The notes beneath the pieces were generated by a model. That model was given only the letters and a program-made list of their open reading frames with translations. It searched no databases and had not been told where the DNA came from. A stretch of DNA of 54,562 bases from an uncultured Gemmatimonadaceae bacterium (GTDB taxonomy: Bacteria > Gemmatimonadota > Gemmatimonadetes > Gemmatimonadales > Gemmatimonadaceae): positions 1 through 54,562 of the forward strand of contig CAYMQV010000003.1 in assembly GCA_964392395.1 (NCBI GenBank). The letters are read 5' to 3'. How positions within the stretch are numbered: position 1 is the stretch's first letter; each line of letters starts with the position of its first letter. Position numbers and translations under genes: made by a program. Below, in pieces: positions 8,450 to 41,254 of this stretch.

Positions 8450-8460
8450 ATGACGTATAA

Positions 8461-8498
8461 AATATAGGACTTTACATATAGATAGATGATCCTATATT
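8461..8498. promoter_or_regulatory. inverted repeat AATATAGGA-N20-TCCTATATT in the AT-rich divergent intergenic region (candidate PadR operator)
   Basis: Perfect 9-bp arms at 8461-8469 and 8490-8498. They lie in the 87-bp AT-rich gap between the divergent S15 hydrolase (start 8449) and the PadR gene (start 8537). Confidence 0.35.
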
Positions 8499-8536: not shown

Positions 8537-9172
8537 ATGACGATGTCGCTCCGGTATGCAATTCTCGGGTTTCTGACCATCAGGCCGTTCAGCGGCTACG
8601 ACATCAAGCGCTATTTCGACAACTCGGTACGGCATTTCTGGAGTGCCGACCAGGCCGCGATCTATCGGACTCTGGCGGACCTCGAGACCGACCATCTGGT
8701 CGGACACGAGCGGGTCGAGCAACAGACTCGACCAGACCGGAAGCTCTACCACATCACTCCCGCCGGGGTCGCTGAGCTCGACGCCTGGTTGGTGTTGCCC
8801 GCCGCCTCGGTCGTCCGCCGCGAGCCGCTGCTGCTGAAGCTCTTCTTCACCAATCGACTGGGCGGCGAGGGGCTGGGAGCAGTCGTCGATTCCGAACTCG
8901 GTGCGGTTGAAGCGCAGCTCGCGGTGTTCAAGTCGATCCTCGCGTCAATCGAGCATGACAGGGCCGAAGCACTGCAGCAGCTGGGTGATGGCGCGGCGGC
9001 GAATGCGTATCGCGAGGTGCTCGTTGGCCCACTGATCACGCTCACCAATGGCGTGCGGCTCGGTGTTGCGTCTCGGGACTGGCTGCGTGGGCTGAAGCAG
9101 GCGCACGAGCAGGACGCACTGACCGACACGGCGATGCTGGCGGAGTTGCATCGATACGTGGACGCGCTTTAG
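8537..9172 (+). CDS. PadR-family transcriptional regulator
   Basis: From the internal ATG at 8537: MTMSLRYAILGFLTIRPFSGYDIKRYF...WSADQAAIYRTLADLE...KLYHITPAGVAEL, a PadR winged-helix N-terminus followed by a C-terminal dimerisation-type domain. Confidence 0.85.
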   Translation: MTMSLRYAILGFLTIRPFSGYDIKRYFDNSVRHFWSADQAAIYRTLADLETDHLVGHERVEQQTRPDRKLYHITPAGVAELDAWLVLPAASVVRREPLLLKLFFTNRLGGEGLGAVVDSELGAVEAQLAVFKSILASIEHDRAEALQQLGDGAAANAYREVLVGPLITLTNGVRLGVASRDWLRGLKQAHEQDALTDTAMLAELHRYVDAL

Positions 9173-25938: not shown

Positions 25939-26340
25939 GGACGCTCAGATGGTGGAGGTAGGGCTGCGCGGGGCGCGCGTGGGGCGAAGGTAGACTTCCT
26001 GGCCGGTGGTGCCGGCAGCACGGACGGCCAGGTCGGCCGAACCTGGCAGAAAGAGGCAAATCGGACATTCACCACCATACGGTCGCTTCAACACGGACCG
26101 GGCTCTGGAGAGTGCACTGTCAGGTGTGCCGTCGGGACAGGACTTTCTGGATGAGAATTACAATCGAGGGGCCGAATCCGCCGCTCAATCCATGTTCTTC
26201 ATCCTCGCGCTGGCGACATCATGTGCGGATTGTCCCGATGGGTACGCACCGTGGCGTGCGGCCGCACCGGCGGGCGCCAGCTACGCCCAGTGCTTCATGG
26301 AGTCGAAATCTTTCGCCGCACTCACGAAGATGGTGGCGGG

Positions 26341-27516
26341 TCAGGGCACCGGCCAGCCGTCGGTCCACGTATTCGCCATGCGCAGCCAGCCACCGTACCG
26401 ATTGAGCGCGCTGGCGACGTGGCACGAGTTGTACTGAACCAGGAAGTTACCGTTGCCCACGCCGCCCCGACCCGGATACGTCTGCGGCAGGTAGGGAAAC
26501 GTCGACAGCGGCACGATCTTCACGTTCAGGCCGGTGATCAGCGAACCCTTCACACGGGTCGCGGCACCGCTCAGCGTGATCTCGCCGCCGACGAGCACTA
26601 CCCCATCCCAGGTGATGTTCGTGAGGCTGGCGTTTCCGGTCACGATCAGGATTCCGCGACCGGCGAAGTTGTCGCCATTGGTGATGTTACCGGTGACGCG
26701 GACCACCGGCCAGTTGGTATACGATGCGGGGAACGCGCCGGTGCTCGGCGAGACCGTGCGGTTGATCGTGAAGTCTGGTTGAAGAACCGAACCGTCCAGC
26801 ACCCCTTCCCAATCCACGCGCACCTGGGTGTTAGCCGTACCGGCGGTCTCGCCAAATCCGGACGGACCGAGGTACGAAGGGGCATTGTCGGGCGAGCCAT
26901 CGATGTAGTTGTTCGCGCTCGGGCTGTTGCTGCCCGGCGTGTACATGCCGTTCGGCACACCCAGGCCGGGGATCGTGGCGCTCGCTCCGCATTCGTCCAC
27001 ACCGGATACACCGCCCGACGTACCGTTCTTGTCCAGGCCGTTCAACGCCACGAATGCGGCATCCACATCCAGGTTCGAGATCTGGCGCTGTACCACTTGT
27101 GACAGCGTGCGAGTGGCCGCCGGTGTGGTGGTGCTGGTACGCCGCCCGTTCACCGTGCCGACGGAGCGCAACACGAACGTGGCCGAGTTGCCGGAGACGG
27201 CGCTGCGCACGCGATCGAGGGTCACCACTGCCGTGCCGTTCCCGATCGTATAGGTGGCCGTGTTGGGCAGGGTCGCTGGTGTCGACGTGGTGACGATCAG
27301 ATATCGCTCGAGCCCGGCATAGGCCACGTTCCAGGCATCAGCCTGCGCGCGCATGTTGGTGGTCGTCGAGTACTCGCTGCTGGACCGCGCGAAGCCAGCC
27401 GCGGCACCGAGAGACATGACCACGATCAGGATCAGAACGAGCACCATCGCCATGCCGCGACGCGCCTGGAGTCGCGGAGTCGAATGCTCGGGACGTGCCA
27501 TCGCTGCTTGGCGCAT
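26341..27516 (-). CDS. PilX-like pilus assembly protein (N-terminal PilX-type hydrophobic segment, large beta-rich C-terminal domain)
   Basis: RRGMAMVLVLILIVVMSLGAAAGF lacks Glu5, as in PilX/GspK-type proteins. The C-terminus has GRGILIVTGNASL...GVVLVGGEITLSG repeats seen in PilX-family proteins. The start shares TGATG with the upstream stop. Confidence 0.7.
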   Translation of the reverse strand: MRQAAMARPEHSTPRLQARRGMAMVLVLILIVVMSLGAAAGFARSSSEYSTTTNMRAQADAWNVAYAGLERYLIVTTSTPATLPNTATYTIGNGTAVVTLDRVRSAVSGNSATFVLRSVGTVNGRRTSTTTPAATRTLSQVVQRQISNLDVDAAFVALNGLDKNGTSGGVSGVDECGASATIPGLGVPNGMYTPGSNSPSANNYIDGSPDNAPSYLGPSGFGETAGTANTQVRVDWEGVLDGSVLQPDFTINRTVSPSTGAFPASYTNWPVVRVTGNITNGDNFAGRGILIVTGNASLTNITWDGVVLVGGEITLSGAATRVKGSLITGLNVKIVPLSTFPYLPQTYPGRGGVGNGNFLVQYNSCHVASALNRYGGWLRMANTWTDGWPVP

Positions 27517-28406
27517 CAGTCGGGCCTGTTCAGGAAAATGATCGACGTCAGTACGCGGAACTGTTCGGCCCGGGATGCTCCGCGCGCCGTGCCGACGCTC
27601 TCGCCGGTCAGGCGAAGCTCGACGCCGCGCAGATTGGCCAGTGACGTGGGGGCTGTGTCCGAGACCGCGCGCACGTTGTTGATGAAGAAGCCGAACCGGG
27701 AGCTGGCTTCCAGCGGCGCCGCCAGCTCATCCGACTGCGTCACGACTCCGAAATTATCCAACTGGCGCCGCCACAACGCCGTGCGCCCAGGCAGGACGGC
27801 TGACGCCGCAATCTCATATCGAACACGTCGCCAGAGCACCACCGGTGTCCCAGGCGGAATCGCAGTCGGGACGCTGATGCCGGACATCGCGAGTACCGCA
27901 CTTCCGGAGATCAGCGTCATACTCGCTGGCGCCAGCGTACACACCGTCGAGGCGCCGGCTACCGGACCGATCGTACTGTTGACGTATCCGTACTCGCCAC
28001 TCGACTGCAGGGCGGCAAATCCGTTGTAGCCGAGGCTCGTTGTCGCAATCGTGGTGTCGGCGGGCAGCATCGCGGCCGTGACCAAACCCGGGTTGCCAGT
28101 CGTCGACGAACAGGCGATCCCCATTCGAAACGGGACGCGGATCGTCAGGCTGGTTGCAGTTGCCGCCTCAACACCACTACCCGCAGACACCATGCGCAGT
28201 TCGGATGTGGCCAGATTCATCCCGGCCCGCGCCGTGCCTCGCGCTTCGCGCCCGGACTCGATACGATCAATGAATCGGCCGCTGCTGATCATGGTGCGGA
28301 CGAGCGCCGCGCCGAGCACGGACGTCACCAGCATTCCAATCATCATCTCGATGATCGTAAAGCCGGGGCGACGCGACGAGATGCGTGCACATGGCGCGGC
28401 CGACAT
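27516..28406 (-). CDS. PilW-like minor (pseudo)pilin with prepilin-type N-terminal methylation motif
   Basis: The ORF track extends to 28877 through Arg-rich junk. The ATG at 28406 gives MSAAPCARISSRRPGFTIIEMMIGMLVTSVLGAALV, with the class III signal G|FTIIE. Confidence 0.75.
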   Translation of the reverse strand: MSAAPCARISSRRPGFTIIEMMIGMLVTSVLGAALVRTMISSGRFIDRIESGREARGTARAGMNLATSELRMVSAGSGVEAATATSLTIRVPFRMGIACSSTTGNPGLVTAAMLPADTTIATTSLGYNGFAALQSSGEYGYVNSTIGPVAGASTVCTLAPASMTLISGSAVLAMSGISVPTAIPPGTPVVLWRRVRYEIAASAVLPGRTALWRRQLDNFGVVTQSDELAAPLEASSRFGFFINNVRAVSDTAPTSLANLRGVELRLTGESVGTARGASRAEQFRVLTSIIFLNRPD

Positions 28407-28837
28407 CACGGCGTTCCCGCGAGATCGAGCGCGCCGACGTTCGCCGCCCGGACGACCGTGAGGCTTTCGGCGCGGAAGGGGGCATTCGTCACGCTTGCAG
28501 CGCGGTCGCTGGTGGCGGGCGTCCCGACCGGCGCGACTACCACCGCGACGCGCTGCTCGCGGCTGCTGAGGTTCGTGACGCGAGTGCAGCGTTGGAAATT
28601 CCAGGGCGCCACGGTCAGCGTATCGCACGCCACGCCCGGGACGGTTGCCGCTGCCGGGACCGCTGTGGCACGCGTGTACTCCGACAGCATCATCGATACC
28701 TGCTGCGTCGATCCCGCCGCCAGGCTGCCGCGCGCGCTGCCCATCATCGCCAGTTTTGCGATGCCCACCGCCGAGACGCCGAAGACGGAAACCGCGACGA
28801 GGATTTCGATGATCGAGATTCCATTGCGAATTTTCAT
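28406..28837 (-). CDS. PilV-like minor (pseudo)pilin
   Basis: The ATG at 28837 gives MKIRNGISIIEILVAVSVFGVSAVG, a prepilin motif with Glu5. The protein is 143 aa. Confidence 0.7.
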   Translation of the reverse strand: MKIRNGISIIEILVAVSVFGVSAVGIAKLAMMGSARGSLAAGSTQQVSMMLSEYTRATAVPAAATVPGVACDTLTVAPWNFQRCTRVTNLSSREQRVAVVVAPVGTPATSDRAASVTNAPFRAESLTVVRAANVGALDLAGTP

Positions 28838-29292
28838 CAGTTGATCCGGACGAGCCCCGACCGCAATGCGACGACACGCTTGACGGACGAACCCTGGGTG
28901 AGTGAAATCGAGAAGCCCTGTGTCGCCAGGCCCGCCGGGCCGATCACGACGGGGAGTGAACTGTTGCTCGGCGACCAGACCATCGATCCGACTTCGAAGC
29001 CGGAGTTGCGGTTGAAGATGCGCTCGAAACGCACGACCCCCGTCGCCTGATCGGTGAGCCGGCACCGCAGTGCCACGGCGTCACACGCGAAGAGCATCGG
29101 CCGGCGCGCCCGGGCCGCCAGAGAGAAACCGGTCTCGATGTCCGCCGCCATGACCGATGCGGCGCCCTTGACCGTCTGGCCCGAGACGGACCGGGCCAGC
29201 GTGGGCGCCGCGACAGCTGCCAGAATGCCGACCATCATCATGACGATCAGCATCTCGATCATTGTGAAACCACGACGGAGCGAAGGGGACAT
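28837..29292 (-). CDS. FimT/GspH-like minor (pseudo)pilin
   Basis: MSPSLRRGFTMIEMLIVMMMVGILAAVAAP. GAGAGG lies 3 nt upstream of the ATG at 29292. An upstream GTG at 29316 is an alternative start. Confidence 0.75.
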   Translation of the reverse strand: MSPSLRRGFTMIEMLIVMMMVGILAAVAAPTLARSVSGQTVKGAASVMAADIETGFSLAARARRPMLFACDAVALRCRLTDQATGVVRFERIFNRNSGFEVGSMVWSPSNSSLPVVIGPAGLATQGFSISLTQGSSVKRVVALRSGLVRIN

Positions 29293-29946
29293 CAGCCTCT
29301 CGAGGGGAGGGAACACCCTGCAGGCGAATTTCCTTGAAACGGGTAACGCGAAACGGGGTCACTCGGCGCGTCAGGTGTTTATTGTCCGCGTCGTGAGGCG
29401 CCGGACCGCGCCCCAGCGGCCGAGGTGGGTCGGGATCTGGTCGAGCACCGACAAATGTGGAATCGATACACGGTTGACCTCACGTTACGATCGTGCGCGC
29501 GGCCAGACTCGCCGGTAGTCGCTTGCGGACTGACTCGGCTCAGCAGCGGACGGACGACGTCACGGTGACACGGCAACTCCGCCGCGCGGCCCGCTGTGCG
29601 CAGGTCCTCGGGCTGGTTCCACGTCTATCAGGCCAGGCCAGACGTTTTCATATCACGCGCGACCAGAGGCGGGGCAGGCCGCACGATGGGCTGACGTCAA
29701 CCCGTGCTGCTGCCAGCGTCGGATTTGCCAGTCGATTGTGAAGCGTTTCGACGTAGAACTGGGGAGCCAGTTTCGCATGACCGCCAGCGCGATGGAAGCA
29801 CGCCATGGGTCAGCGACATCGCCGAATAGATGGTCACCGTGCGGCCGGCTATCTGATTCGCTGCAGCAGAGGTTTGCGTCAGAAGACCCCAGGAAGAAGT
29901 CGGTGCTCGAGCCCTGCCTGGCGCCGAGTGATGGGGGCCTCTGCCG

Positions 29947-30651
29947 TTACCTCGGCGCGTTGACCATGACCGTCGGAGCACTCCGGATCGTGAGTGGTTC
30001 CCAGATCATCTCGTATCCTGTAGGCGTCCGCTCCAGGCGCCCAACGCGCATGCCCGTATTGTTCGCATCGTTCGGCTCGCCCGCCGCGAGGATTCGCGCC
30101 GTGACAGTGAAGGACTTCCCAAGCTCGAGGCTGACAGTCGTCTGCCCGCTGCGTGTGAGGACGCGACTCTGGACATATGTGCGCTCTCCGGGCCCGATAC
30201 TTCCGAGGATCTTGCTGGGCGCAATGCGGAACGTGCCCGACGCGACGGCCGAACGGGTGCTGCCCCCGCTCGATGAACGCGGGACAACGCTCACCCCACC
30301 TGATGGACGCCCCGCTCGCGCGGGTGTCGAGGGGCCAACAATGTCCCGGAGCGTAAAGGAGTATTCCACCGTGCCGCTCGACGACCACCGCACATTCCCC
30401 TGATTGGTCAAAGTGACCCCCACCTCCAGAAAATCCGTCTGCAGGTTCTGATTATCTACGAGCCTGTGGCCCGGATCGGATACCTCCATATGGCCTCGGG
30501 ACAACCCCATTTGCTCGATGACCAGATCGGGGCCCTCGATCACCCTGGTTGCGACCGGCGCCGTCTGGCGAATCGGTCTGGCCTGTGCCCGCACCATGGG
30601 AGCCATGCAGACAATTACAGTGGCAGCAGCGACGATGCGGATTGACGGCAT
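29947..30651 (-). CDS. secreted CARDB-like protein, paralog A
   Basis: The ATG at 30651 gives the signal MPSIRIVAAATVIVCMAPMVRAQA. TLTNQGNVRW, GSIGPGERTY and AAGEPNDANN match the CARDB pattern (TNxG ... PGE ... E/D-x-NN). It is clearly paralogous to 35698..36390. Confidence 0.7.
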   Translation of the reverse strand: MPSIRIVAAATVIVCMAPMVRAQARPIRQTAPVATRVIEGPDLVIEQMGLSRGHMEVSDPGHRLVDNQNLQTDFLEVGVTLTNQGNVRWSSSGTVEYSFTLRDIVGPSTPARAGRPSGGVSVVPRSSSGGSTRSAVASGTFRIAPSKILGSIGPGERTYVQSRVLTRSGQTTVSLELGKSFTVTARILAAGEPNDANNTGMRVGRLERTPTGYEMIWEPLTIRSAPTVMVNAPR

Positions 30652-30838
30652 GCGGCGACTCCGACGAAAGAGGGGGCCTGCGCGCGCGTCCGACCGACTG
30701 GAGTCGGCATCGACCGCAAACACTTTACAAGCGTGCCGCCAAGTCCGGAGCTCCGCCAGTGGCCGGAGACGGAGTATCTGGTGACCTCAGCCTCGGCCGA
30801 ACCGACGGCGCAGGTCGATCCGCTGTCGTCTCTCGGGG

Positions 30839-30872
30839 TAGGAATCTCGATCCGGATGCGATAGGAATCTCG
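30839..30872 (+). promoter_or_regulatory. direct repeat TAGGAATCTCG x2 (23-bp phasing) upstream of 30935 gene
   Basis: Perfect 11-mers at 30839-30849 and 30862-30872. They lie 63-96 nt upstream of the ATG at 30935, in the divergent region shared with paralog A. Confidence 0.3.
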
Positions 30873-30934
30873 TGTGCTGGCGCGCGCCACCGTGCGCCCC
30901 GGTCGTGGCGCGGCTTTAGCGAAGGGAGATCGCG

Positions 30935-31372
30935 ATGCAACGGAGTCGCTGGCAGTCGAGGCGCATTCTGATGGCCGTCGGGTTACTCGGCCTGGTCGCC
31001 GCGGACGTTGCGGCGCAGAGCCCCGCGCCGCCGCCAGCCTCCGCTACGGTTGACTCGGCGCACCCGGGACATCAACCCGACCTTCGCGTTCGACTCATCG
31101 ATCGGCGCACGCGCGCTCCGCTCCGTCGGCGTACCGTGACGGTGTACAGCGACAACGGACTGCGTTGCCTTCGCCCACCCTGTGCCGCCAACGGCGAGCA
31201 GTGGGAAGGACGTACTGACTCGACTGGTGTGGCGGTCCTGCCGGGCCGGTTGCGGCAGGAGTCGATGCATCTCTGGGCCAATGGCTACTCGGCGCGCATC
31301 GATCTCCTCGCCAGCGCCGTGCGCCGCACCGCCAACTCGTGGGTGGTGGCGCTGCGGCGCGATCGCCAGTGA
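30935..31372 (+). CDS. small secreted protein, carboxypeptidase-regulatory-like beta-sandwich (tentative)
   Basis: Signal peptide ILMAVGLLGLVAADVAAQ. DLRVRLIDRRTRAPLRRRTVTVYSDNG...GRTDSTGVAVLPG resembles CarboxypepD_reg-type domains. Confidence 0.6.
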   Translation: MQRSRWQSRRILMAVGLLGLVAADVAAQSPAPPPASATVDSAHPGHQPDLRVRLIDRRTRAPLRRRTVTVYSDNGLRCLRPPCAANGEQWEGRTDSTGVAVLPGRLRQESMHLWANGYSARIDLLASAVRRTANSWVVALRRDRQ

Positions 31373-31673
31373 TGGGACCGCGCCCTGCCTGGCCGTCGAC
31401 TGAAGGACGCGGGCTCGACGACGCAGCGGCTTCGGAACGTCCTTGCCCCGATCCGCGTACCGCCGGTGCCCCGTCCGGGCAGACCGTCCGCCGGGTTCAA
31501 CGATGGCATGCCAGCCTGCGTGCGTCGAACGCGCGGCAGACGTGAGTCATGCGGTTGCCGAGGTCAGCGATTCGCTGCGGTAGTCGGACATGATCCGCCT
31601 GTCGCGTGTGCTCCGCATGTCGCGCTCTCCTTCGTCAGTGTGGATCAACGGCCGTGCACCGCATGCATTCAGC

Positions 31674-34600
31674 TTACAGTTTGGAGCAGATGCCGCCACC
31701 ACCGTACGCTCCAAGCACCGCGTCGCCCTTGCTGATCCAGTCGGCGACCTGCTCGGCGGTCCTGGCGCCGACGCCTTTCAGCACCGGCCCGACCGCGCCG
31801 GTGGCCAAGGAGCAGGGCAGTTCGCCGAGGCTGCCGATATCGCCCGGTTGTGCCTCGAGGGTGGCGAGGGTGAGCGTTGCCGCGTGCAGCTTGCTGAGCT
31901 TGGTCTGTTCCACGGAGAGCCAGGCGCCGAAACCGTAGCTGCCACCGAGCATCGAGGCTGCGACGCCGATGTTGTTCAGAATGGTCGACGCGCGTTGGAA
32001 CACGGCATTGATCTCCTCCACTTCTCCGCCGCCGCTGCCATCCGGGAGCACGCCGATCAGCGTGCCGTTCTTCGGCGTGACGGCCCAGAATGCGGCCACC
32101 GACGCATCGGCCGCGACGAGGCGCGCACGTGCCCGCCAGACCGGTGCATCGGCGATGCGCGCGAGCGGCGCCAACTGATCCGCGTCAAGATCACGCAAGA
32201 CGGTGGCGACCGCGCGACCCGGCGGAACGAGCACGAGCTGTTTGCCCGCGAGCAGCGCCGCCGTGGACGTGGAGAAGCCCACCTGTTCGATCAGCGCCAG
32301 ACGCGCGGTGCGCTCGAGAGTACGACGCGTATCCGCGCCGCCGTCCGCACCGATGGTGGACACGCGCAGCATCGGGAGCACATCGACGCGACGGAGCCCG
32401 GGTTTGCCGGGTCGGCGTCGCGCGGTGAGCAGCACCGCCGACAGCCCGTCGGCGAAGGTGCAGCTGTTGCCATCGTTGGGGCGATGCCACTGCGGCTGAT
32501 AGGCGAAGCATTCAGCGGCAACGGCATACGGTGCCTTCGCGAGCGCGGCAGCGGTAGCGCGGTCGTCCTTCGCGGCAATGGCGCGCAGGATCGGCTCTTG
32601 CGCGAGCATGCCGGAGAAGACGTCATCGAGCCAGGCAGCGGCGGTTGGCGGACCGCCCTCGAATGCCAGCACGGCCGTGCCGAAGAGCGCCGCCTCCACC
32701 TCATCGGGCGCGCCTTCGGCGAGCGTGCGCAGGTGCACCTCGCCTCCCGACTCCACGCTCACATAGAGCCCGGCGAGGGCATCGGGGCGCACGCGTGCGG
32801 TGGCAGCCGGCACGGTGTAGGACGCGGTGGCCTCCACGCTCCGCCCGGCGATCGTGACCCGCACGGCTCGGGTGGACGGCCCATCGACCGTTGCGAGATA
32901 GCGCAGTTGATGCGCAGCATCCGCCCGCTCGCCAAGGAGCCGACGCACGGCAGCCACGGCGGCGTCCGGCGTCGTGGCGCTCGTGGACACGCCACCCGAG
33001 GCATCGGCGAGGGCCGCAAGTGTTGCCTTCTCCGCCGCGCCAATGCCGACCAGCACGGAGGGCGGCCCGGAGGCAATGCGGGCCAGCCACTCCGGGCGCG
33101 GTTGATCGCTGGCCTTGCCGTCGGTGATGAGGACGACGACCGTAGGGTCCGCTGCCGTCCGCGCGTCAGACAACGACTGCCACAGGCCAGACTCGAACGA
33201 CCTCGGCAGATGTGTGCGCGCGGCCTCCTCGATGGCATCAGCGTCGGTCAGCCACGGCTCCGCCTTGGGACGCTCACCGATGGCACGCACCCGCAGCCGG
33301 AGGCCAGGGACGTCCGCGAGCAGCGCGTCTGCCAGCGACCGGATGACGCGGAGCGCGCCGCCGCCGCGGAAGTCGGCGGGCAAGCTCGCGGAGCCATCCA
33401 GCAGAAGCAGAACGCGCGGCGCGCGTCGATTACGGAGGAGCAGTGCTGCGACCGCTGCGCCCTCTTCCTGACAAACGAAGGCCGAGGCCGGCAGCCCCTC
33501 GATTGCGACGCCGGCGGCATCGCGCGCGGTGACGTCGAGCAGCACCGAAGGAAAAGCGGTCCCGCGGGCGGTGACCGTCAATGAGGCCACCCGCGCGAGC
33601 AGCGCCGGGTTCGGCGTCGCCTCTGCCAGTGGTTCTTCATTCAGTCGCACCGCGCCATTCGCATCGAGGTCGATGAGGTCGCCTTGCAGCGTGATGGCGC
33701 GGCCGGTGCGGGTCTGGCGTGCCCGCTCGACATCGGTGAATGCTGCACCGCGCAACGCGATCAGCGGCAGGACGGTGCGCACCTGATCGATCCGCATGCG
33801 GAGCAGCTCGGCGGCGGCCACCGGAGGCGGAAAGCCGAGTATGATCTGCCGTCCGGCGAGTTCCGCGGCCGTCCACGCGGCACTCACCAACTCGATGCGC
33901 CCGTCCGGTGCTGAGGAGCGCGATGCGAGAAGCGCGATGCGCACGGTGGGGGTAGCCAGCGGCGCCGCCGCGGTCGAGGGCGGCCCCAGAAGGATATCGG
34001 CGTTGAAGTCGGCGCCAGGCAGGTTCGGATTGGCGAATTGCACACCCGCGCGCGTTCGCACGCGAACGAGCGGGAGCTCGATGGAGCGGCGCCCGACACG
34101 TTGCACGGGCGCCGTCAGAAGATCGCCGAGCAGGTCGGCCAGCTGCGTGGCGAGCGCAGCGGCTGCACGGTCATCCGGATCGAGCGGCGGCAGGCGCGAT
34201 GGCTCCGCGCCGCCACGCGCCGCTGCCGCCAGTACGGCGTCGTCCGCGGGCCGCAGCCTCGGCGCGAAGTCGGCCGGCACGTGCCCTCTCAGCAGCGTGA
34301 ACGGATCGTCGTCGGGAAGCGCGACGCGGCCGGCAACCACCTCGGCGTCGAACCCGGCAGCGCGATACAACTGCGTCAGCAGTTCGGCCTTCTCGCGCGG
34401 TGTTCCAGCGCCGCACCGAAGCGCGGCGCGCGTGCCCCAGCGCATGGCCCGCACGGGCGCCGCAAAACCGTCGGCGTCGTCCGGCAAGGTGCGGATCCGA
34501 TCGCGCACGAACCGATGGAGGCCCGGCGCGTCTTTCTGCGCAACGAGGGCACGGGCCACGAACTCCAGATGATCGGGCGAACGGCGGACAGACTCACGAA

Positions 34601-34733
34601 GTCGGCGCAGCGCTTCGAAGGGATCGGTGATCGCCGCGATAGGCGCGTCAGAAGCAGAGCTTCGACAGCCCAGAACGCCGAGGGCGACGCCGAGCGCGGT
34701 GGCCTGCAGCAAATCGCGGCGCGAGAGTGACAT
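31674..34733 (-). CDS. large Tat-exported lipoprotein with transglutaminase-like segment and von Willebrand factor A domain
   Basis: MSLSRRDLLQATALGVALGVLGC carries both a Tat motif and a lipobox. Residues ~95-135 (ALRCGAGTPREKAELLTQLYRAAGFDAEVVAG) look like a transglutaminase core. The vWA region is residues ~438-600, with the MIDAS-type DGSAS at nt 33384-33398 and VVVLITDGKASD. About 400 C-terminal aa are unassigned. Confidence 0.8.
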   Translation of the reverse strand: MSLSRRDLLQATALGVALGVLGCRSSASDAPIAAITDPFEALRRLRESVRRSPDHLEFVARALVAQKDAPGLHRFVRDRIRTLPDDADGFAAPVRAMRWGTRAALRCGAGTPREKAELLTQLYRAAGFDAEVVAGRVALPDDDPFTLLRGHVPADFAPRLRPADDAVLAAAARGGAEPSRLPPLDPDDRAAAALATQLADLLGDLLTAPVQRVGRRSIELPLVRVRTRAGVQFANPNLPGADFNADILLGPPSTAAAPLATPTVRIALLASRSSAPDGRIELVSAAWTAAELAGRQIILGFPPPVAAAELLRMRIDQVRTVLPLIALRGAAFTDVERARQTRTGRAITLQGDLIDLDANGAVRLNEEPLAEATPNPALLARVASLTVTARGTAFPSVLLDVTARDAAGVAIEGLPASAFVCQEEGAAVAALLLRNRRAPRVLLLLDGSASLPADFRGGGALRVIRSLADALLADVPGLRLRVRAIGERPKAEPWLTDADAIEEAARTHLPRSFESGLWQSLSDARTAADPTVVVLITDGKASDQPRPEWLARIASGPPSVLVGIGAAEKATLAALADASGGVSTSATTPDAAVAAVRRLLGERADAAHQLRYLATVDGPSTRAVRVTIAGRSVEATASYTVPAATARVRPDALAGLYVSVESGGEVHLRTLAEGAPDEVEAALFGTAVLAFEGGPPTAAAWLDDVFSGMLAQEPILRAIAAKDDRATAAALAKAPYAVAAECFAYQPQWHRPNDGNSCTFADGLSAVLLTARRRPGKPGLRRVDVLPMLRVSTIGADGGADTRRTLERTARLALIEQVGFSTSTAALLAGKQLVLVPPGRAVATVLRDLDADQLAPLARIADAPVWRARARLVAADASVAAFWAVTPKNGTLIGVLPDGSGGGEVEEINAVFQRASTILNNIGVAASMLGGSYGFGAWLSVEQTKLSKLHAATLTLATLEAQPGDIGSLGELPCSLATGAVGPVLKGVGARTAEQVADWISKGDAVLGAYGGGGICSKL

Positions 34734-34748
34734 CGTGATGGCGAGCGC

Positions 34749-35369
34749 TCAGAGCCTGGTTGCCATGACGCGACTGCATTCGAACGTGCCGCGCACCGTC
34801 CAGAATTTGCGGGTCCTGTCCGTGTACGGACCGATGATGAACGAGCCACTCCGTTCATCCGGGTTGATCGTCACGGAGGCCGCACCGCCCGCGGTGTTTA
34901 TGGTCTGATCCCACATGCGCTTGCCTTTTCCTTCTGGGCGGAAGAGCCACGACTTTGCTTCGGTTTTCGGACCCAGAGGGAAGTGCTGCGGATAGGTTCC
35001 GGCACCCGCGTACCGGACACTCCGGTCCCATGGGTAGCCGCCGACCTGCAGGCTCAACGACACGCCGGGGTCGCTGAAGTTGGGGCCATCGGGGCCGATG
35101 GTGGCGTCGAACGCCAGCGTGTAGGTCCCAATCCGTTTGTTCTGCAGGCAGCCAACGAGGCGTATGGGAGCAGCGACCCTGCGGCCGCGAAGCGCCATTT
35201 GCGCCGGCGCGAGGGCCGGAAAGCCGCCGGCGCTGCGTGACAGCTGGTAGGAGGAGGAGACGCGGCCACCGGCCAGGATCTCGTACGTAAGCTTGATTGT
35301 GCCGGAGTCGGCCTGTGCACGGGCGACGCTGGGCAACAGCACGAGCAGGACAAAACCGAACGGGCGCAT
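34749..35369 (-). CDS. secreted protein of unknown function (206 aa)
   Basis: The ATG at 35369 gives the signal MRPFGFVLLVLLPSVARAQA. The gene ends 15 nt upstream of the vWA lipoprotein start, so the two are probably co-transcribed. Confidence 0.7.
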   Translation of the reverse strand: MRPFGFVLLVLLPSVARAQADSGTIKLTYEILAGGRVSSSYQLSRSAGGFPALAPAQMALRGRRVAAPIRLVGCLQNKRIGTYTLAFDATIGPDGPNFSDPGVSLSLQVGGYPWDRSVRYAGAGTYPQHFPLGPKTEAKSWLFRPEGKGKRMWDQTINTAGGAASVTINPDERSGSFIIGPYTDRTRKFWTVRGTFECSRVMATRL

Positions 35370-35618
35370 GGTCACCTCGGAGCAGCGGGAACGAGCACGA
35401 ACCGGAAGGATCGCGGATCGGGAGAGCAGGTGGAACGGCACCGTGTGGCCGGGCGAATATACTGCGCCCGCCGCGCTCCTGGTCAAAGAAAGCGTTGGGC
35501 CGGCTGGCGTCGGGAGGACGGCGCCGAGGGGCAGATAATGTGGCGCGCAGGAGAACCAGTCGTGTCAGCGTTGGAGCTCTGTCTTGTCAGGGCCTCCACC
35601 GCGCTTAGTGTAGAAGTC

Positions 35619-35643
35619 AACGCCGTGCGCGAAACGCCGTGCG
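35619..35643 (+). promoter_or_regulatory. direct repeat AACGCCGTGCG x2 (14-bp phasing) upstream of paralog B
   Basis: Perfect 11-mers at 35619-35629 and 35633-35643. They lie 55-79 nt upstream of the ATG at 35698, in the 328-bp divergent region. Confidence 0.25.
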
Positions 35644-35697
35644 TCACTGCCGTCCACTGGCACACCGAACGTGATTCCCCATCCGAGGCGAACACCA

Positions 35698-36390
35698 ATG
35701 TCTTCGTTGCGCAGTGCTCTTTTCCTGATCCTGAGCGCCGGTACCCTCTCCGCCCAGGCCGCCGCCCCGATTCGTCCCACCACTGCGCAGGCAGGCGCGG
35801 TGCTGGTGGCAGGGAGCGATCTGGTGGTCGACTCGATCGACCTGAGCATGCCCCGCGCGCTTGGCTCCGGTGTGGAGGCGGAGGGTAACCAGATCAACGC
35901 CCGCGGGTTGTTTGTGGTGGCGAGAGTGACCAATCGAGGACGTGAGCGGTGGGCATCTCGCGGCGAGGTCGGCTTCAGCCTGTCGGCAGGAAGGGAGGAA
36001 GACGCTGCAGGTCGGACGCGACGTCGCGGAGGTGTGAGTGAGGTTCCGGGCTCTCCCGGAATCTTCGGAACTGTGATGGCGCCATTCGGACCGTTCAGTG
36101 CGCGGGCAACGATTTCAGGGAGCATTGCGCCGGGCGAGTCGAAGATGATCACGGCCATGGTCGGAAACCGCAACGATCAGAGCCGGCTGATCTTCGAACG
36201 CGACAAGTATTACACCGTGATTTCAACGATCCGCGCGAGTGGGGACGTCGACGAATCGAACAATCGGAGCGTCCGCGTCGGCCGCATCGACGCGAATCGT
36301 CGCGGTACCCTGCTGGTCAATTGGGAGCCGATCGCGTATCGCAGCACGTCGGGCGGAACGGTGCAGGTGAACGCACCGCCGAGGCCGTGA
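35698..36390 (+). CDS. secreted CARDB-like protein, paralog B
   Basis: The ATG at 35698 gives the signal MSSLRSALFLILSAGTLSAQA. ARVTNRGRERW, GSIAPGESKM, ASGDVDESNN and a C-terminal VRVGRIDANRRGTLLVNWEPIAYRS...VQVNAPP align block by block with paralog A. Confidence 0.7.
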   Translation: MSSLRSALFLILSAGTLSAQAAAPIRPTTAQAGAVLVAGSDLVVDSIDLSMPRALGSGVEAEGNQINARGLFVVARVTNRGRERWASRGEVGFSLSAGREEDAAGRTRRRGGVSEVPGSPGIFGTVMAPFGPFSARATISGSIAPGESKMITAMVGNRNDQSRLIFERDKYYTVISTIRASGDVDESNNRSVRVGRIDANRRGTLLVNWEPIAYRSTSGGTVQVNAPPRP

Positions 36391-36495: not shown

Positions 36496-36555
36496 ACCAC
36501 CCGTACCGTACACGGGCACGGGTACGGTACGGGTACGGGCACGTGTACGGGTGGT
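36496..36555. terminator. GTAC-rich hairpin between convergent genes (candidate bidirectional terminator)
   Basis: ACCACCCGTAC (36496-36506) pairs with GTACGGGTGGT (36545-36555). An inner CGTACACG/CGTGTACG pairing and GGGTAC/GGTAC tandem units lie in between. No U-tract is present. Confidence 0.35.
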
Positions 36556-37178
36556 CACAGTTGTTCGAGTGCCTTTCTCGCAATCTTCGTGAGCCGACCA
36601 ACGCTCTCCTCGACGCGGTCGCCCGCCGAGGATTCGCCAATCGTGAGCCACTGCCTCGGTGCATGCTTCACGTTGACGGCGATGGACGACCGCTGCGCGC
36701 TGCCGAGGTTCACCCAGTAGGCGGCATCACCAAGGCCGGCAATGTCGACGGGCGTTGCGTTCAGCCCGAGAGCCGCGACCCCCTTCTTCATCTGCTCGAC
36801 GGTTGCGTGCGCCGCGTCATTCGGCGCGGTGACCACCGTCAGGTTGATGGTCATCATGTCACGCATCGTGGTACCCGACGTATAGGTACACGATGTCACG
36901 GCGTTGGTCTTTGCGGTGCCGGGCCGATTGTGCGGCACCGGTCCGCTGGTATCGACGACGAACGTGCGCGGCGCGAAGACCTCGGCAAGATCGGCAGGCG
37001 AGATCATTTTGCACGCATCGGCGGTCGCACCCGTGCTGCGTGCGAGTGCGTCCGTGTTGCCACTGGCGGCGACGGTCGCCGACGGCGGGGCGTCCGCGCC
37101 TGATTTTTCAACCGTTCCGCCTCCGCAGGCCGCCAGAAGGGCTGTCGAGAGGGTGAGTGCCGAGTGACGTCGAGTCAT
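36555..37178 (-). CDS. lipoprotein, unknown function
   Basis: Lipobox LLAACGGG. It is a 207-aa exported protein with no family recognised. Confidence 0.7.
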   Translation of the reverse strand: MTRRHSALTLSTALLAACGGGTVEKSGADAPPSATVAASGNTDALARSTGATADACKMISPADLAEVFAPRTFVVDTSGPVPHNRPGTAKTNAVTSCTYTSGTTMRDMMTINLTVVTAPNDAAHATVEQMKKGVAALGLNATPVDIAGLGDAAYWVNLGSAQRSSIAVNVKHAPRQWLTIGESSAGDRVEESVGRLTKIARKALEQL

Positions 37179-37826: not shown

Positions 37827-39194
37827 TTGACTCGAGCGTGCCTGAGCACCTCGGGCAGTTGCGAGGGGTTTCCGTGTGAAACCCATTGGACCTCCGATCG
37901 ATTCACCGTGATCTCATTCGGCACGCGCAGCATCCTCCTGCTGGTTGGCACGGTCCACGGGCTGGTACTGGCGGCGCTGCTGCTGCGCACGAAGGACAAT
38001 CGTGTGGCCAACCGGCTGCTGGCGCTGTTGCTGTTGCTGGTCGCGATGCGCGTCGTCCCGTACATCATCGGTTTTGCAGGCTTCTACGACGTGTACCCAT
38101 GGTTGTCGTACATGCCGTACGAGTGGTCGCTGGCCTACGGTGCGGTGATCTGGCTGTACGCGCGCGTGATCTGCACCGGCGCGCTGCCGGCGCGATGGCA
38201 CTGGCACCTCGTTCCCGGTGCGATGCAAGGTGCCTACTACTGCGTGATGTTCGTGCAGCCGCTGTCCTCTAAGAATCACTGGAACGAGACCATTCACGAC
38301 CCGCGGATCGTGCCGGTCGAAACGGCGTTGTCGCTGCTGGCGATGTGCGTGTACATCGCCTTGGCGTGGCGCGAGTACACACGCTATCAACGCTGGCTCG
38401 ACTCGGATCTGTCGAATCGCGAAGAGTTCAGGCTGACGTGGTTGCGACTGTTTCTGCTGGCGCTCGGCGCGACGCTGGTGTTGTGGACCGGCACGGTGCT
38501 GTTCGAGACGCTCGTCAGGCAGTTGAACTACTTCGACCGCTTTCCGCTCTACCTCTGGTTCTCGCTGCTGATCTATGGACTCGGCGCTGGCGGACTGAGG
38601 AGCGCGAATCTGGCGTATCCCAAGCCGCCGGCGTGGGGCTGGTTCGAGGCGGGCGAACGGCCGGCGGAGCAGACGCTTAAGGTCGAGGTCGCTGACGAGG
38701 CGAACGCGGCTGAACTTCTTCCTGAAGGCCTCATGAACGTTCAGGCCGTGCCCGGCGCCCCGGTGTGGTTCATCGGAGTGGACAGCGTTGCTGATGTCGA
38801 AGTCGACTCAAAAGCAGAGGCCGCTCGTCAGCCGGACTGGGTCGAAATGGGTACTCGTTGGAGCGAACTGGTCAGGGCGTCAGGCTGGTGGCGAAACCCT
38901 GACCTGACCGCCCCGCTACTCGCCAGACACCTGAACACCAACGGCACCTATCTCTCTCGGGCCCTCAACGAAGGGCTCGGCCAGAACTTCAACGAGTTCG
39001 TCAATCGACTCCGCGTCGAGGCGGTGCAGGCCGAATTGGCTCGGCCCGAGTTCAGCCGCGATGTTCTGGCGGTCGCCCTGGACGCTGGCTTCAACTCGAA
39101 AGCGTCGTTCAACCGCGTCTTCAAGCGCCTCACAGGCACCACCCCGACCGACTTTCGCCGCCAAAAAGGCCTCGGGACGTCTCAACTTCAGTAG
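37827..39194 (+). CDS. membrane-anchored AraC-family transcriptional regulator
   Basis: The N-terminal ~230 aa has about 6-7 hydrophobic helices. The C-terminus LLARHLNTNGTYLSRALNEGLGQNFNEFVNRLRVE...AGFNSKASFNRVFKRLTGTTPTDFRR is an AraC dual HTH. The start is uncertain (TTG 37827 or GTG 37908). Confidence 0.8.
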   Translation: MTRACLSTSGSCEGFPCETHWTSDRFTVISFGTRSILLLVGTVHGLVLAALLLRTKDNRVANRLLALLLLLVAMRVVPYIIGFAGFYDVYPWLSYMPYEWSLAYGAVIWLYARVICTGALPARWHWHLVPGAMQGAYYCVMFVQPLSSKNHWNETIHDPRIVPVETALSLLAMCVYIALAWREYTRYQRWLDSDLSNREEFRLTWLRLFLLALGATLVLWTGTVLFETLVRQLNYFDRFPLYLWFSLLIYGLGAGGLRSANLAYPKPPAWGWFEAGERPAEQTLKVEVADEANAAELLPEGLMNVQAVPGAPVWFIGVDSVADVEVDSKAEAARQPDWVEMGTRWSELVRASGWWRNPDLTAPLLARHLNTNGTYLSRALNEGLGQNFNEFVNRLRVEAVQAELARPEFSRDVLAVALDAGFNSKASFNRVFKRLTGTTPTDFRRQKGLGTSQLQ

Positions 39195-39277: not shown

Positions 39278-41254
39278 GTGTTGTCGTCCCGCTCGATCCT
39301 CATGCTGAAAATCACCGCAATCGCCGCGCTGGCCGTTTCGGTCACGGTCACCGCCGCACCAGCCCAGCCCACGCCCATCGTCTACGCGGCGAGGCAGCTC
39401 ACCCCGACACAGGTGTCTGCCGATGTCGAGCTGATGCGGCAGGCGCTGGAACAGGTGCACGCTGGCTACGACCGCTATGTGCCGCGCCGCGTCATGGACA
39501 CCGCCTTCGCCCGGCTCGGTCGCCGAGCCGCCACCCCGATGACCGACCTCGAACTGTACCGTGAGGTCGCCCTGCTGCTGGCCCGGATCCGCTGCAATCA
39601 CACCAAGGCCGAGTACCCGGCCGCGCTGGAGTCCTTTCGGACGAAGACGGCGACACACCTGCCGGTCCGGGTGCGGGTGTTCGACAAGCGGATGTTTGTC
39701 GACACCAGCGCCGGCAACGCCATCGCACACGGTACCGAAATCGTGAGCATCAACGGCAAGGCGACCAAGGACATCGTCGAGAGGCTGTCCCGCTTCGCCG
39801 CGATCGACGGGTTCACCGACTTTGCACGCGCCGCCTTGCTGGAGCGCCACGATGATCTGATGGGCTCGGATCTCGACCACTACTGGCCGGTGGAATTCGG
39901 GTTTGCGAGTGACTGGACATTCGAACTCACGGATGCTGCCGGCGCAACGCGCACGACGACGTTGGCCCCCATTTCGTTTGCTGCGTGGAGCGCGCTCAGC
40001 GGCGATGGGAAGAACATCGACTTCCGGACCGGAACGACGCTGGCGATCGTGAACGATACGACAGCACGGTTCACCATCCGAAGTTTCGCCAACTATCGCA
40101 GGCCGATCAGCGCCGACTCGCTCTACGCCTCGACCTTCGCTCAGCTCCGGCGCCGCGGCGTGAAGCACCTGATCCTCGATCTACGCGACAACGGCGGCGG
40201 CTCCGATGATGCATCGAATGGGCTGGTGAAGTATCTCATCGACCGCCCGCTGCAGCCCACCAAGGCCGTGCGTCGTCGCACGATCCTGATCGACTCCACG
40301 CTCAGTACCGCCCTTGACACCTGGGGCAATCGCACCGCGATCTTCGCACCGGCAGAATCACTGTTCACCAGGCGTGCTGACGGATGGTTTGCAGAGCGCA
40401 GCGCAGTCGGGGTGATCCAACCCTCGCGTGATGCATTCACCGGTCGCGTCTCGGTCCTGGTGGGTCGTCACAACGGATCGGGCGCGACCATGCTGCTGGC
40501 GGTGCTGCAGGAGATGGGCGTACGCACGGGCAAGCTGCGCCTGGTCGGCGAGGAAACCGGCGGTAGTGCCGCAGGGCCAACCGCGGGCCAGATTCTGTCT
40601 CTGAAGCTACCGAACAGCGGGATGCGCGTGCGAATCCCGCTCGAGCGCAGCGACGTGAACGTCAGCAACCCGCTCTTCGGCATGGGTGCATTCCCGGATG
40701 TCGATGGTACGCAGACGATCGGTGACTTTCGTGCCCGCATCGATCGCGCACTCGTGACTGCCCGTACCACACCGTGGACGCCTGTGCGGTCGCCACTCGC
40801 ACCGACGGTCGGCCTGATGCAGGGCGAGTTGGAGTACCGCGACTACTCCGACAGCAGTCATCGTACCATTCCCTCGTGGTCGCACATGTCACCCATCGGC
40901 ACCACTGGTGCCTTTCGCCAGCGCACGGTCTATGACGATGGTCCCGGAAACACGATCTACACCACCGACGTGCTGCACATCGTTGGGAACCGGTGGATGG
41001 AAGGCGACGGCGCCGAATCGGGTGAAACGGGCACGCCAGAATCCACCTTCCGCATTACGTCGCGCCGCCGAACGGCAACGGGTCAGCAACTAGTGCTTCT
41101 GGGCAAGGGAATGGACGACAACAAGACCGTCGATTTCCGCTTCACGGTGACGCTGGGCGACACGATCTTCAATCGCGTGAAGGAGTTCCGGCTGCCGGGC
41201 CAGGAGTACGTGTGGCGTCACGAGTATCGCTATCGGCGAGTGGCGGTGAAGTGA
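39278..41254 (+). CDS. S41-family peptidase with an extra ~170-aa C-terminal domain
   Basis: Signal peptide present. LILDLRDNGGGSDD and HNGSGATMLLAVLQE are typical of tail-specific-protease-like S41 peptidases. The start is GTG 39278 or ATG 39302. Confidence 0.85.
   Translation: MLSSRSILMLKITAIAALAVSVTVTAAPAQPTPIVYAARQLTPTQVSADVELMRQALEQVHAGYDRYVPRRVMDTAFARLGRRAATPMTDLELYREVALLLARIRCNHTKAEYPAALESFRTKTATHLPVRVRVFDKRMFVDTSAGNAIAHGTEIVSINGKATKDIVERLSRFAAIDGFTDFARAALLERHDDLMGSDLDHYWPVEFGFASDWTFELTDAAGATRTTTLAPISFAAWSALSGDGKNIDFRTGTTLAIVNDTTARFTIRSFANYRRPISADSLYASTFAQLRRRGVKHLILDLRDNGGGSDDASNGLVKYLIDRPLQPTKAVRRRTILIDSTLSTALDTWGNRTAIFAPAESLFTRRADGWFAERSAVGVIQPSRDAFTGRVSVLVGRHNGSGATMLLAVLQEMGVRTGKLRLVGEETGGSAAGPTAGQILSLKLPNSGMRVRIPLERSDVNVSNPLFGMGAFPDVDGTQTIGDFRARIDRALVTARTTPWTPVRSPLAPTVGLMQGELEYRDYSDSSHRTIPSWSHMSPIGTTGAFRQRTVYDDGPGNTIYTTDVLHIVGNRWMEGDGAESGETGTPESTFRITSRRRTATGQQLVLLGKGMDDNKTVDFRFTVTLGDTIFNRVKEFRLPGQEYVWRHEYRYRRVAVK

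Follow-up and report, generated by a model that had tools for sequence, protein, structure and literature searches.

Exported-protein genes around a large predicted Tat lipoprotein in an uncultured Gemmatimonadaceae bacterium: gene content, recurrence and decay

Do five neighbouring genes for exported proteins form one surface system, or do they only share a neighbourhood? The question is raised by positions 29947 to 36390 of a 54,562-nucleotide (nt) stretch of DNA, referred to here as the window, from contig CAYMQV010000003.1 of an uncultured Gemmatimonadaceae bacterium. A first-pass annotation of the window had read this interval as one coherent cell-surface module for adhesion, capture or matrix cross-linking, in which a lipoprotein of 1,019 amino acids (aa), here called C, is bracketed by an inverted pair of paralogs, here called A and E. 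Gene contexts were compared in about 100 loci, and in our judgment the interval is probably a fluid, lineage-specific neighbourhood of envelope and secreted-protein genes in Gemmatimonadales and not a dedicated five-gene system. The genes for A, B, D, E and C and for an adjacent DUF3558-like lipoprotein are accessory and, among close strains, have been gained, lost or degraded independently of one another. Any functional grouping would be loose at most, lineage specific and centred on the pair formed by the E-like protein and the lipoprotein. The genes concerned are the following (related loci are cited below by numbers such as L007).

A, 29947 to 30651, minus strand: 234-aa secreted protein of an immunoglobulin (Ig)-like beta-sandwich family, divergent paralog of E
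B, 30935 to 31372, plus strand: 145-aa protein with a signal peptide and no fold assignment from Pfam, NCBIfam or PDB
Remnant, 31368 to 31595, minus strand: about 70 codons left of a gene for a secreted protein of 445 to 452 aa
C, 31674 to 34733, minus strand: 1,019-aa predicted lipoprotein with a twin-arginine translocation (Tat) signal, from a large unnamed family
D, 34749 to 35369, minus strand: 206-aa secreted protein with no fold match
E, 35698 to 36390, plus strand: 230-aa secreted protein with an Ig-like beta-sandwich
DUF3558-like lipoprotein, 36555 to 37178, minus strand: 207 aa, lipobox LLAAC, outside the interval first singled out

Gene content, recurrence and decay

All five open reading frames (ORFs) lie at the positions and on the strands first proposed for A, B, C, D and E, and 15 nt separate the stop codon of D from the ATG of C downstream, as had been claimed. 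By eye, each of the five N-termini has a hydrophobic core and, after it, an AxA-type site, and the description of the interval as a cluster of exported-protein genes is borne out as such. Codon-level comparison with orthologs gave ratios of nonsynonymous to synonymous substitution rates (dN/dS) below 1 for every gene, with values of 0.14 for C (against L007), 0.16 to 0.23 for E, 0.18 to 0.31 for B, 0.33 to 0.64 for D and 0.58 for A; the DUF3558-like lipoprotein gene gave 0.12 to 0.21. A to E are therefore real genes and not high-GC ORF artefacts, and C, at 0.14, is under purifying selection where it is intact. The G+C content reaches 0.71 inside C (positions 32001 to 34000) versus approximately 0.64 to 0.66 in the rest of the window, and long antisense ORFs within C, such as one of 664 aa on the plus strand at 31590 to 33584, appear to be artefacts of this high G+C content. 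Pfam gave no match for A, B, D or E.

No neighbour is shared by C-family loci across phyla. All-versus-all BLASTP clustering of the neighbouring ORFs in 80 such loci returned only generic families (for example, histidine kinases), and hidden Markov models (HMMs) of the E-like and D families found matches in loci of the Gemmatimonad subclade only and none in the remaining ∼70 loci. C is solitary in L013 and at some 70 loci of other phyla. The other parts also occur by themselves: E-like genes are present without C in L093, L096 and L098, and D-like genes without C in L090 and L093. D adjoins C only in the window lineage and in L007.

Within the subclade, an E-like gene lies within a few kilobases of C in seven of the eight loci that could be tested among those with a C of 60% identity or more (the window, L007, L008, L002, L015, L014 and L016; L013 is the exception, and P0011 lies outside the count). 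Synteny is found in part, as proximity of an E-like gene to C in close relatives, with no neighbour conserved beyond the subclade. The proposed bracket does not survive the comparison, since its geometry is not kept: L008 carries a tandem pair of E-like genes on one side of C, with two other genes in between, L002 has a convergent E-like copy on the other side, downstream of C, L015 has a divergent copy upstream, and A is a remnant in L007. Local gene turnover can, as a side effect, leave a large gene bracketed by paralogs.

Decay in the closest relatives affects one gene at a time. L099 and L100 are metagenome contigs that are ∼97% identical to the window and have the same gene order. In both, C is a deleted and frameshifted pseudogene (L099, 1 to 1948; L100, 3370 to 5205; corresponding to 31536 to 34658 of the window). 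A 991-nt deletion in C (window 33668 to 34658) is common to the two, and L100 has further deletions of 106 nt (33257 to 33362) and 251 nt (31536 to 31786). Beside the broken C, the genes for A, B, D, E and the lipoprotein are intact. In L007, C is 92% identical, yet A has been reduced to a 61-codon ORF (8773 to 8958, plus strand) made of middle and C-terminal parts, in which the segment RWASSGKVEYSFT is joined directly to the C-terminal WEPL...VMVNAPR; L100 alone yielded an intact ortholog of A (95% aa identity; this is the comparison behind its dN/dS of 0.58). In the window itself it is a further gene that has decayed. A tblastn search found a match to aa 149 to 218 of a 445-aa protein of L007, with 43% identity, and intact versions of this gene directly follow C in L007 (445 aa, 6767 to 8104) and L008 (452 aa, 7134 to 8492). 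The two intact proteins are 45% identical to each other, and Pfam gave no match for them. Because C is broken in L099 and L100, A has decayed in L007 and the 445-aa gene has decayed in the window, the components have been gained and lost independently, and an obligate complex would not behave in this way.

On our account, both B and D are secreted proteins of recent, lineage-specific origin. Orthologs of B were found only in the two closest relatives, L007 (78% identity) and L100 (99%), and the protein, first described as beta-sandwich-like, had no match in Pfam, NCBIfam or PDB. The D family comprises 17 clusters at 52 to 92% identity, and D had no match in Pfam or PDB.

The regular partner of A/E-type proteins is the adjacent DUF3558-like lipoprotein and not C. 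Its gene is the most regular neighbour of E-like genes; the two adjoin in the window and in L007, L008, L093, L096/97, L098 and L099 to L102, that is, in at least six distinct contexts, both tandem and convergent. In L028 and L030, a homolog of the lipoprotein gene also lies directly upstream of, and on the same strand as, the gene for a C homolog of 36% identity.

The model of the first-pass annotation can be restated for the Gemmatimonadaceae alone: the lipoprotein, E/A, D and C would form one envelope or surface complex, with C as an anchored VWA adhesin and the small proteins as accessory or ligand subunits. If this were true, it would be a new surface system. We regard it as unlikely, while noting that it draws on much of what weighs against our own account. 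An E-like gene stays near C in the seven loci named above despite rearrangements and in varied arrangements, three lineages (the window, L007 and L100) retain the 15-nt spacing of D and C, in a second subfamily (L028 and L030) C is directly preceded by the DUF3558-like lipoprotein gene, and every protein has an export signal. Given these adjacencies of the E-like, D and lipoprotein genes to C, some lineage-specific functional coupling of the lipoprotein, the E-like protein and C is possible. All the loci with these adjacencies come from one bacterial family, in which shared ancestry is confounded with function. The neighbour clustering used crude ORF calls and had the sensitivity of BLASTP and HMM searches, so that partners recognisable only by structure would be missed; flavobacterial C homologs, for example, also have several small signal-peptide proteins ahead of them. 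How broad the E-like family is was gauged by word-indexed search alone. Two further points concern C itself: its binding role, as set out below, comes from domain content alone, and its C-terminal 330 residues have no recognisable relative, and the nearly invariant D784 and invariant E816 in this part could mark an enzyme.

Against the complex stand the near-identical strains in which C is pseudogenised next to intact genes for E and the lipoprotein that are still under purifying selection, the joint occurrence of E-like and lipoprotein genes without C in L093, L096 and L098 and of D without C in L090 and L093, the solitary C of L013 and of the ∼70 loci from other phyla, the degraded A of L007, and a profile-profile comparison that found no relationship of the E-like family to any C domain. 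One coherent module is thus not what the comparison supports: its parts share no neighbour across phyla, occur separately and decay independently. The comparative data describe an accessory, decaying neighbourhood, with no new multi-gene system to catalogue.

The large protein C and its family

The N-terminus of C reads MSLSRRDLLQATALGVALGVLGC. The Tat signal proposed for it is recognised by TIGR01409 (TAT_signal_seq) with 19.7 bits, above the cut-off of 16.7, at aa 3 to 30, and the proposed lipobox is likewise found, as a predicted V-L-G-C23 pattern whose GC belongs to the subfamily consensus. Most members of the family have a twin-arginine and/or lipobox N-terminus; the twin-arginine (RR) motif is present in 90 of the 165 full-length members and the lipobox pattern in 92. 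An AlphaFold2 model of C, built on the family alignment, had a mean predicted local distance difference test score (pLDDT) of 79 and a predicted template modeling score (pTM) of 0.79. Its parts are listed below, all on the minus strand.

aa 1 to 23, nt 34665 to 34733: signal and lipobox
aa 38 to 215, nt 34089 to 34622: helical and Cys-less transglutaminase-like domain
aa 108 to 116: GAGTPREKA motif
aa 217 to 435, nt 33429 to 34085: beta-sandwich region
aa 438 to 606, nt 32916 to 33422: VWA domain with a metal ion-dependent adhesion site (MIDAS)
aa 608 to 692, nt 32658 to 32912: second beta-sandwich
aa 698 to 906, nt 32016 to 32642: alpha/beta domain of no known fold, with D784, E816 and DGSGGG at 898 to 903
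aa 908 to 1019, nt 31677 to 32012: amphipathic helical tail, modelled with low confidence, with a conserved Cys at its end

The VWA domain had been recognised from DGSAS (aa 446 to 450, nt 33384 to 33398) and ITDG (aa 536 to 539), and the region assigned to it, aa 438 to 606, is backed by Pfam, PDB profile and Foldseek matches. Pfam VWA matches 24 of 26 close members, at best with an E value of 4.8e-8, and the window protein scores 19.5 bits versus a cut-off of 23.8. The MIDAS residues D446, S450, S515 and D538 (the last within ITDG) are invariant or nearly so across 47 diverse family members. Foldseek was run with the full-length model, and its result is dominated by this domain: VWA and integrin I-like domains were matched at E values of 3e-6 to 1e-4, and only the VWA-centred core was recognised (ITIH1, integrin beta, TFIIH p44, collagen VI and viral ITIH-like proteins).

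A transglutaminase-like segment, ALRCGAGTPREKAELL...VVAG at aa 104 to 135, had also been suspected, and it has weak but recurrent profile support. Pfam Transglut_core gives 16.7 bits on the window protein, below the cut-off of 23, and the match recurs in 18 of the 26 close members and reaches an E value of 2.6e-6 in the best distant member; CEP76 peptidase-like matches were obtained for seven family members. These matches are what would speak for C as a working enzyme, either a transglutaminase or a cysteine protease, for the cross-linking or processing of matrix proteins, an idea we consider extremely improbable. The position of the catalytic Cys is taken by Pro112, within the GAGTPREKA motif that is invariant in the 26 closer members and nearly so family-wide, and the family alignments contain no invariant Cys or His in aa 35 to 215. 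Because of this Pro112 and the missing invariant Cys and His, the transglutaminase-like domain is classed, from its sequence, as a predicted pseudo-enzyme, and for the same reasons the matrix cross-linking that the module had been credited with is unlikely for C.

Of the C-terminal ∼400 aa it had been said that they contain no recognisable motif, and indeed no family model covers the alpha/beta domain; a profile search with the C-terminal 330 residues returned no relative in PDB. E816 is invariant in this region among the 47 diverse members, at least 90% of which also conserve D784, G899 and G901. A Cys is found within the last eight residues of 144 of the 165 members. In the window protein, the tail is too weakly hydrophobic for a membrane anchor, and no 19-residue stretch of C exceeds a hydropathy of 1.5. 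A comparison with hhalign showed no homology between the N- and C-terminal domains.

The conserved Asp, Glu and Gly residues and the terminal Cys invite the suggestion that the alpha/beta domain (aa 698 to 906) is the functional core of C, either an enzyme or a module for self-processing or attachment, with the VWA domain and the sandwiches serving only to target it. ITIH heavy chains offer a loose parallel through their VWA core, ITIH1 and viral ITIH-like proteins being the best Foldseek matches of the core of C. The TM-scores of the ITIH matches are low, however (0.14 and 0.22), and owed chiefly to the VWA domain; no sequence relative in PDB and no family model was found for the alpha/beta domain, and its conserved residues may be just structural. 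We consider this suggestion very unlikely.

We infer envelope localisation and a binding function for C, in both cases from its domain content only. The protein would be exported folded via the Tat pathway and then be lipid-anchored at Cys23, and it would act through the MIDAS of its VWA domain as a metal-ion-dependent envelope binding or scaffold protein. The dead transglutaminase-like domain would serve as a binding or structural module, with no cross-linking.

A word-indexed search had found just 27 relatives of C and understated the size of the family. An exhaustive profile search, built from these 27 relatives, returned 3,563 proteins at E values of ≤1e-3 and 488 cluster representatives at E values of ≤1e-30; the best 150 matches listed are nearly all 950 to 1,100 aa long, and most are covered over almost their whole length. 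In a scan of one genome per species, relatives were present in at least 101 GTDB species. The carriers belong to Gemmatimonadota, Myxococcota, Chloroflexota, Actinomycetota (Actinoplanes and Krasilnikovia), Planctomycetota, Acidobacteriota, Alphaproteobacteria, Halobacteria and Bacteroidota (Flagellimonas, Aureibaculum and Longimonas). In the source records these proteins are named only "VWA domain-containing protein" or "hypothetical protein", and a homolog on a Haladaptatus plasmid is annotated just as a truncated "hypothetical protein". A literature search returned nothing specific on a characterised lipoprotein that combines a Tat signal with VWA and transglutaminase-like domains.

The closest structural parallels are ITIH/VIT-VWA proteins. 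Like C, ITIH1 (PDB 6fpy; Foldseek E value of 3e-6) has a beta-sandwich and a VWA domain with a MIDAS, followed by another sandwich, and both kinds of protein are extracytoplasmic with a metal-dependent site, in the case of C by prediction. C differs in having no match to the Pfam models VIT and ITI_HC_C and in the low TM-scores given above, and its Cys-less transglutaminase-like domain, its alpha/beta domain and tail and its predicted Tat-lipoprotein anchoring were not seen in the ITIH-type matches. Among bacterial proteins, the family resembles those described by TIGR03436 (acidobact_VWFA), which matches 30 of the 47 members and not the window C, and by VWA_3, which matches 11 of the 26. Transglutaminase-like proteins without the catalytic Cys offer another parallel. 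One of them, the PDB entry 3kd4 ("putative protease"), shares with C the helix motif GTPxExAxLLxxxLxxAGhxxEV, where transglutaminases have their catalytic helix; this match is weak (E value of 0.75), is not significant alone, and comes with a different architecture in the remaining parts. For the CEP76 peptidase-like domain, the matches within the family are weak and recurrent, and the window C falls below the curated thresholds. Nothing near C was recognised as a sortase or other partner gene.

BatA/BatB and TgpA share with C the VWA or transglutaminase-like domains and an association with the envelope, which for C is predicted. C differs from them in having no transmembrane helices, no transglutaminase triad and no match to a Bat or TgpA model, and neither MoxR/AAA_3 nor DUF58 was found near C in the window or in the loci of relatives, flavobacterial ones included. 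No characterised family such as BatA/B or TgpA accounted for C in these searches. An identity as TgpA or as an active transglutaminase was rejected for want of a Cys/His triad and of transmembrane segments.

In Flavobacteriaceae (L089, 1095 to 9971; L085; L070), distant homologs, 22 to 25% identical to C, likewise show a lipobox and an RR motif. Ahead of them, in the same orientation, come a hybrid two-component regulator and between four and six small proteins with a signal peptide or lipobox, which makes an operon around the C homolog possible in this group. The small proteins include a DUF4412 protein in L089, and in L070 some resemble, by eye, hemopexin-repeat and CarboxypepD_reg-like proteins. 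A Bat/MoxR-type operon was rejected for these homologs, the neighbours being the hybrid two-component regulator, the DUF4412 protein and small lipoproteins.

It may further be asked whether C stands for an undescribed, widespread class of Tat-exported envelope lipoproteins, reaching from Gemmatimonadota to Flavobacteriia and haloarchaea, in which the C-terminal domain might be a new catalytic or self-attaching module on a pseudo-transglutaminase/VWA platform and which in the Gemmatimonadaceae might cooperate with the DUF3558-like lipoprotein and E-type proteins. Taken as a whole, this proposal seems quite unlikely to us. The value of the family is descriptive: it combines a constant architecture of six parts with no fewer than 488 clusters (at 50% identity) in many phyla, and ∼330 residues of C match no known fold by sequence, making it a reasonable target for structural genomics and for a Pfam entry. 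Cultured carriers (Flagellimonas, Longimonas halophila, Krasilnikovia and Actinoplanes) would permit genetics.

The paralogs A and E and the DUF3558-like lipoprotein

The paralogy of A and E that had been noticed by eye is firmly established by BLASTP (35% identity over 241 columns; E value of 7e-23), and the two genes are transcribed outward, A on the minus and E on the plus strand, as had been described. The E-like family comprises 34 clusters, seen only in Gemmatimonad-type contigs, and all of them keep GxDLV-D, VTNRGxERWA, PGSLAPGES, ERDKYYT and NNRSxRVGR. An AlphaFold2 model of E shows an Ig-like beta-sandwich, with a pLDDT of ∼90 in the core and a disordered insert of ∼25 residues.

The CARDB signature that had been attributed to both proteins was not reproduced by profile searches: Pfam CARDB (PF07705) matches 0 of the 34 family members at E values of ≤10, A and E themselves have no match at E values of ≤1, and a profile of the E-like family found no CARDB chain in PDB. 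Foldseek placed E among generic Ig-like and E-set sandwiches (the Ig-like domains of GH2 and GH3 enzymes, ApaG and TMEM106B), with the CARDB structure 3idu at rank 19 (E value of 2.8e-3; TM-scores of 0.26 and 0.46). What A and E have in common with CARDB is the motif order DLVV ... VTNxG ... PGES ... D-x-NN, seen by eye, and a predicted beta-sandwich; they differ from it in the profile results and in the ∼25-residue disordered insert. To judge by sequence, "CARDB-like" would thus denote a likeness of motif order and not a shown membership. A comparison with hhalign showed no homology between the E-like family and any domain of C.

An E-like domain is fused to an N-terminal Cys-rich domain in a 330-aa protein of L016 (8753 to 9745, minus strand) and in P0057. 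The same Cys-rich domain occurs in neighbouring genes, where the source labels it DUF8200, a label that was not reproduced with the local copy of Pfam.

For the lipoprotein encoded at 36555 to 37178, Pfam DUF3558 (PF12079) gives 24.9 bits, below its cut-off of 34.1. The homologs upstream of C in L030 resemble it in their lipobox and in their DUF3558 scores of 24 to 25 bits, which are likewise below 34.1. The likeness to DUF3558 adds no mechanism, because that family has no known function.

The pilin block and other flanking features

A block of ∼4 kb next to A (window ∼25946 to 29934) contains four prepilin-type genes, for minor pilins or pseudopilins.

Prepilin-type gene, 28837 to 29316, minus strand
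Prepilin-type gene, ∼28406 to 28780, minus strand
Prepilin-type gene, 27516 to 28364, minus strand
Prepilin-type gene, 26341 to 27516, minus strand

One of the products matches N_methyl with 29.4 bits, and there is a weak match to PilX_N. The VWA domain of C and this minor-pilin operon, ∼0.6 kb past A, raise the possibility that C is a pilus tip adhesin like PilY1, which in some bacteria has a VWA domain at its N-terminus; the four genes at 26341 to 29316 are on the same strand as A and C. The block is absent, with matching junctions, from L100 and L007 and is therefore an indel unrelated to C; no convincing flanking repeats were found around it. Furthermore, at 80 other loci a search with a working positive control detected no prepilin motif up to 7 kb from C, and C has no match to a PilY1 or PilC domain. 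Given the indel and the missing motifs at other loci, a PilY1-like role for C is effectively refuted.

Neither a structured RNA of an Rfam family nor an informative result from a promoter and terminator scan was obtained for the window, and PADLOC models of anti-phage defence systems gave no match to the six proteins at E values of ≤0.01. Beyond the cluster, the window encodes a membrane-associated AraC-family regulator (37827 to 39194, plus strand) and an S41 peptidase (39278 to 41254, plus strand). The region of the AraC-family regulator is syntenic in L007 too.

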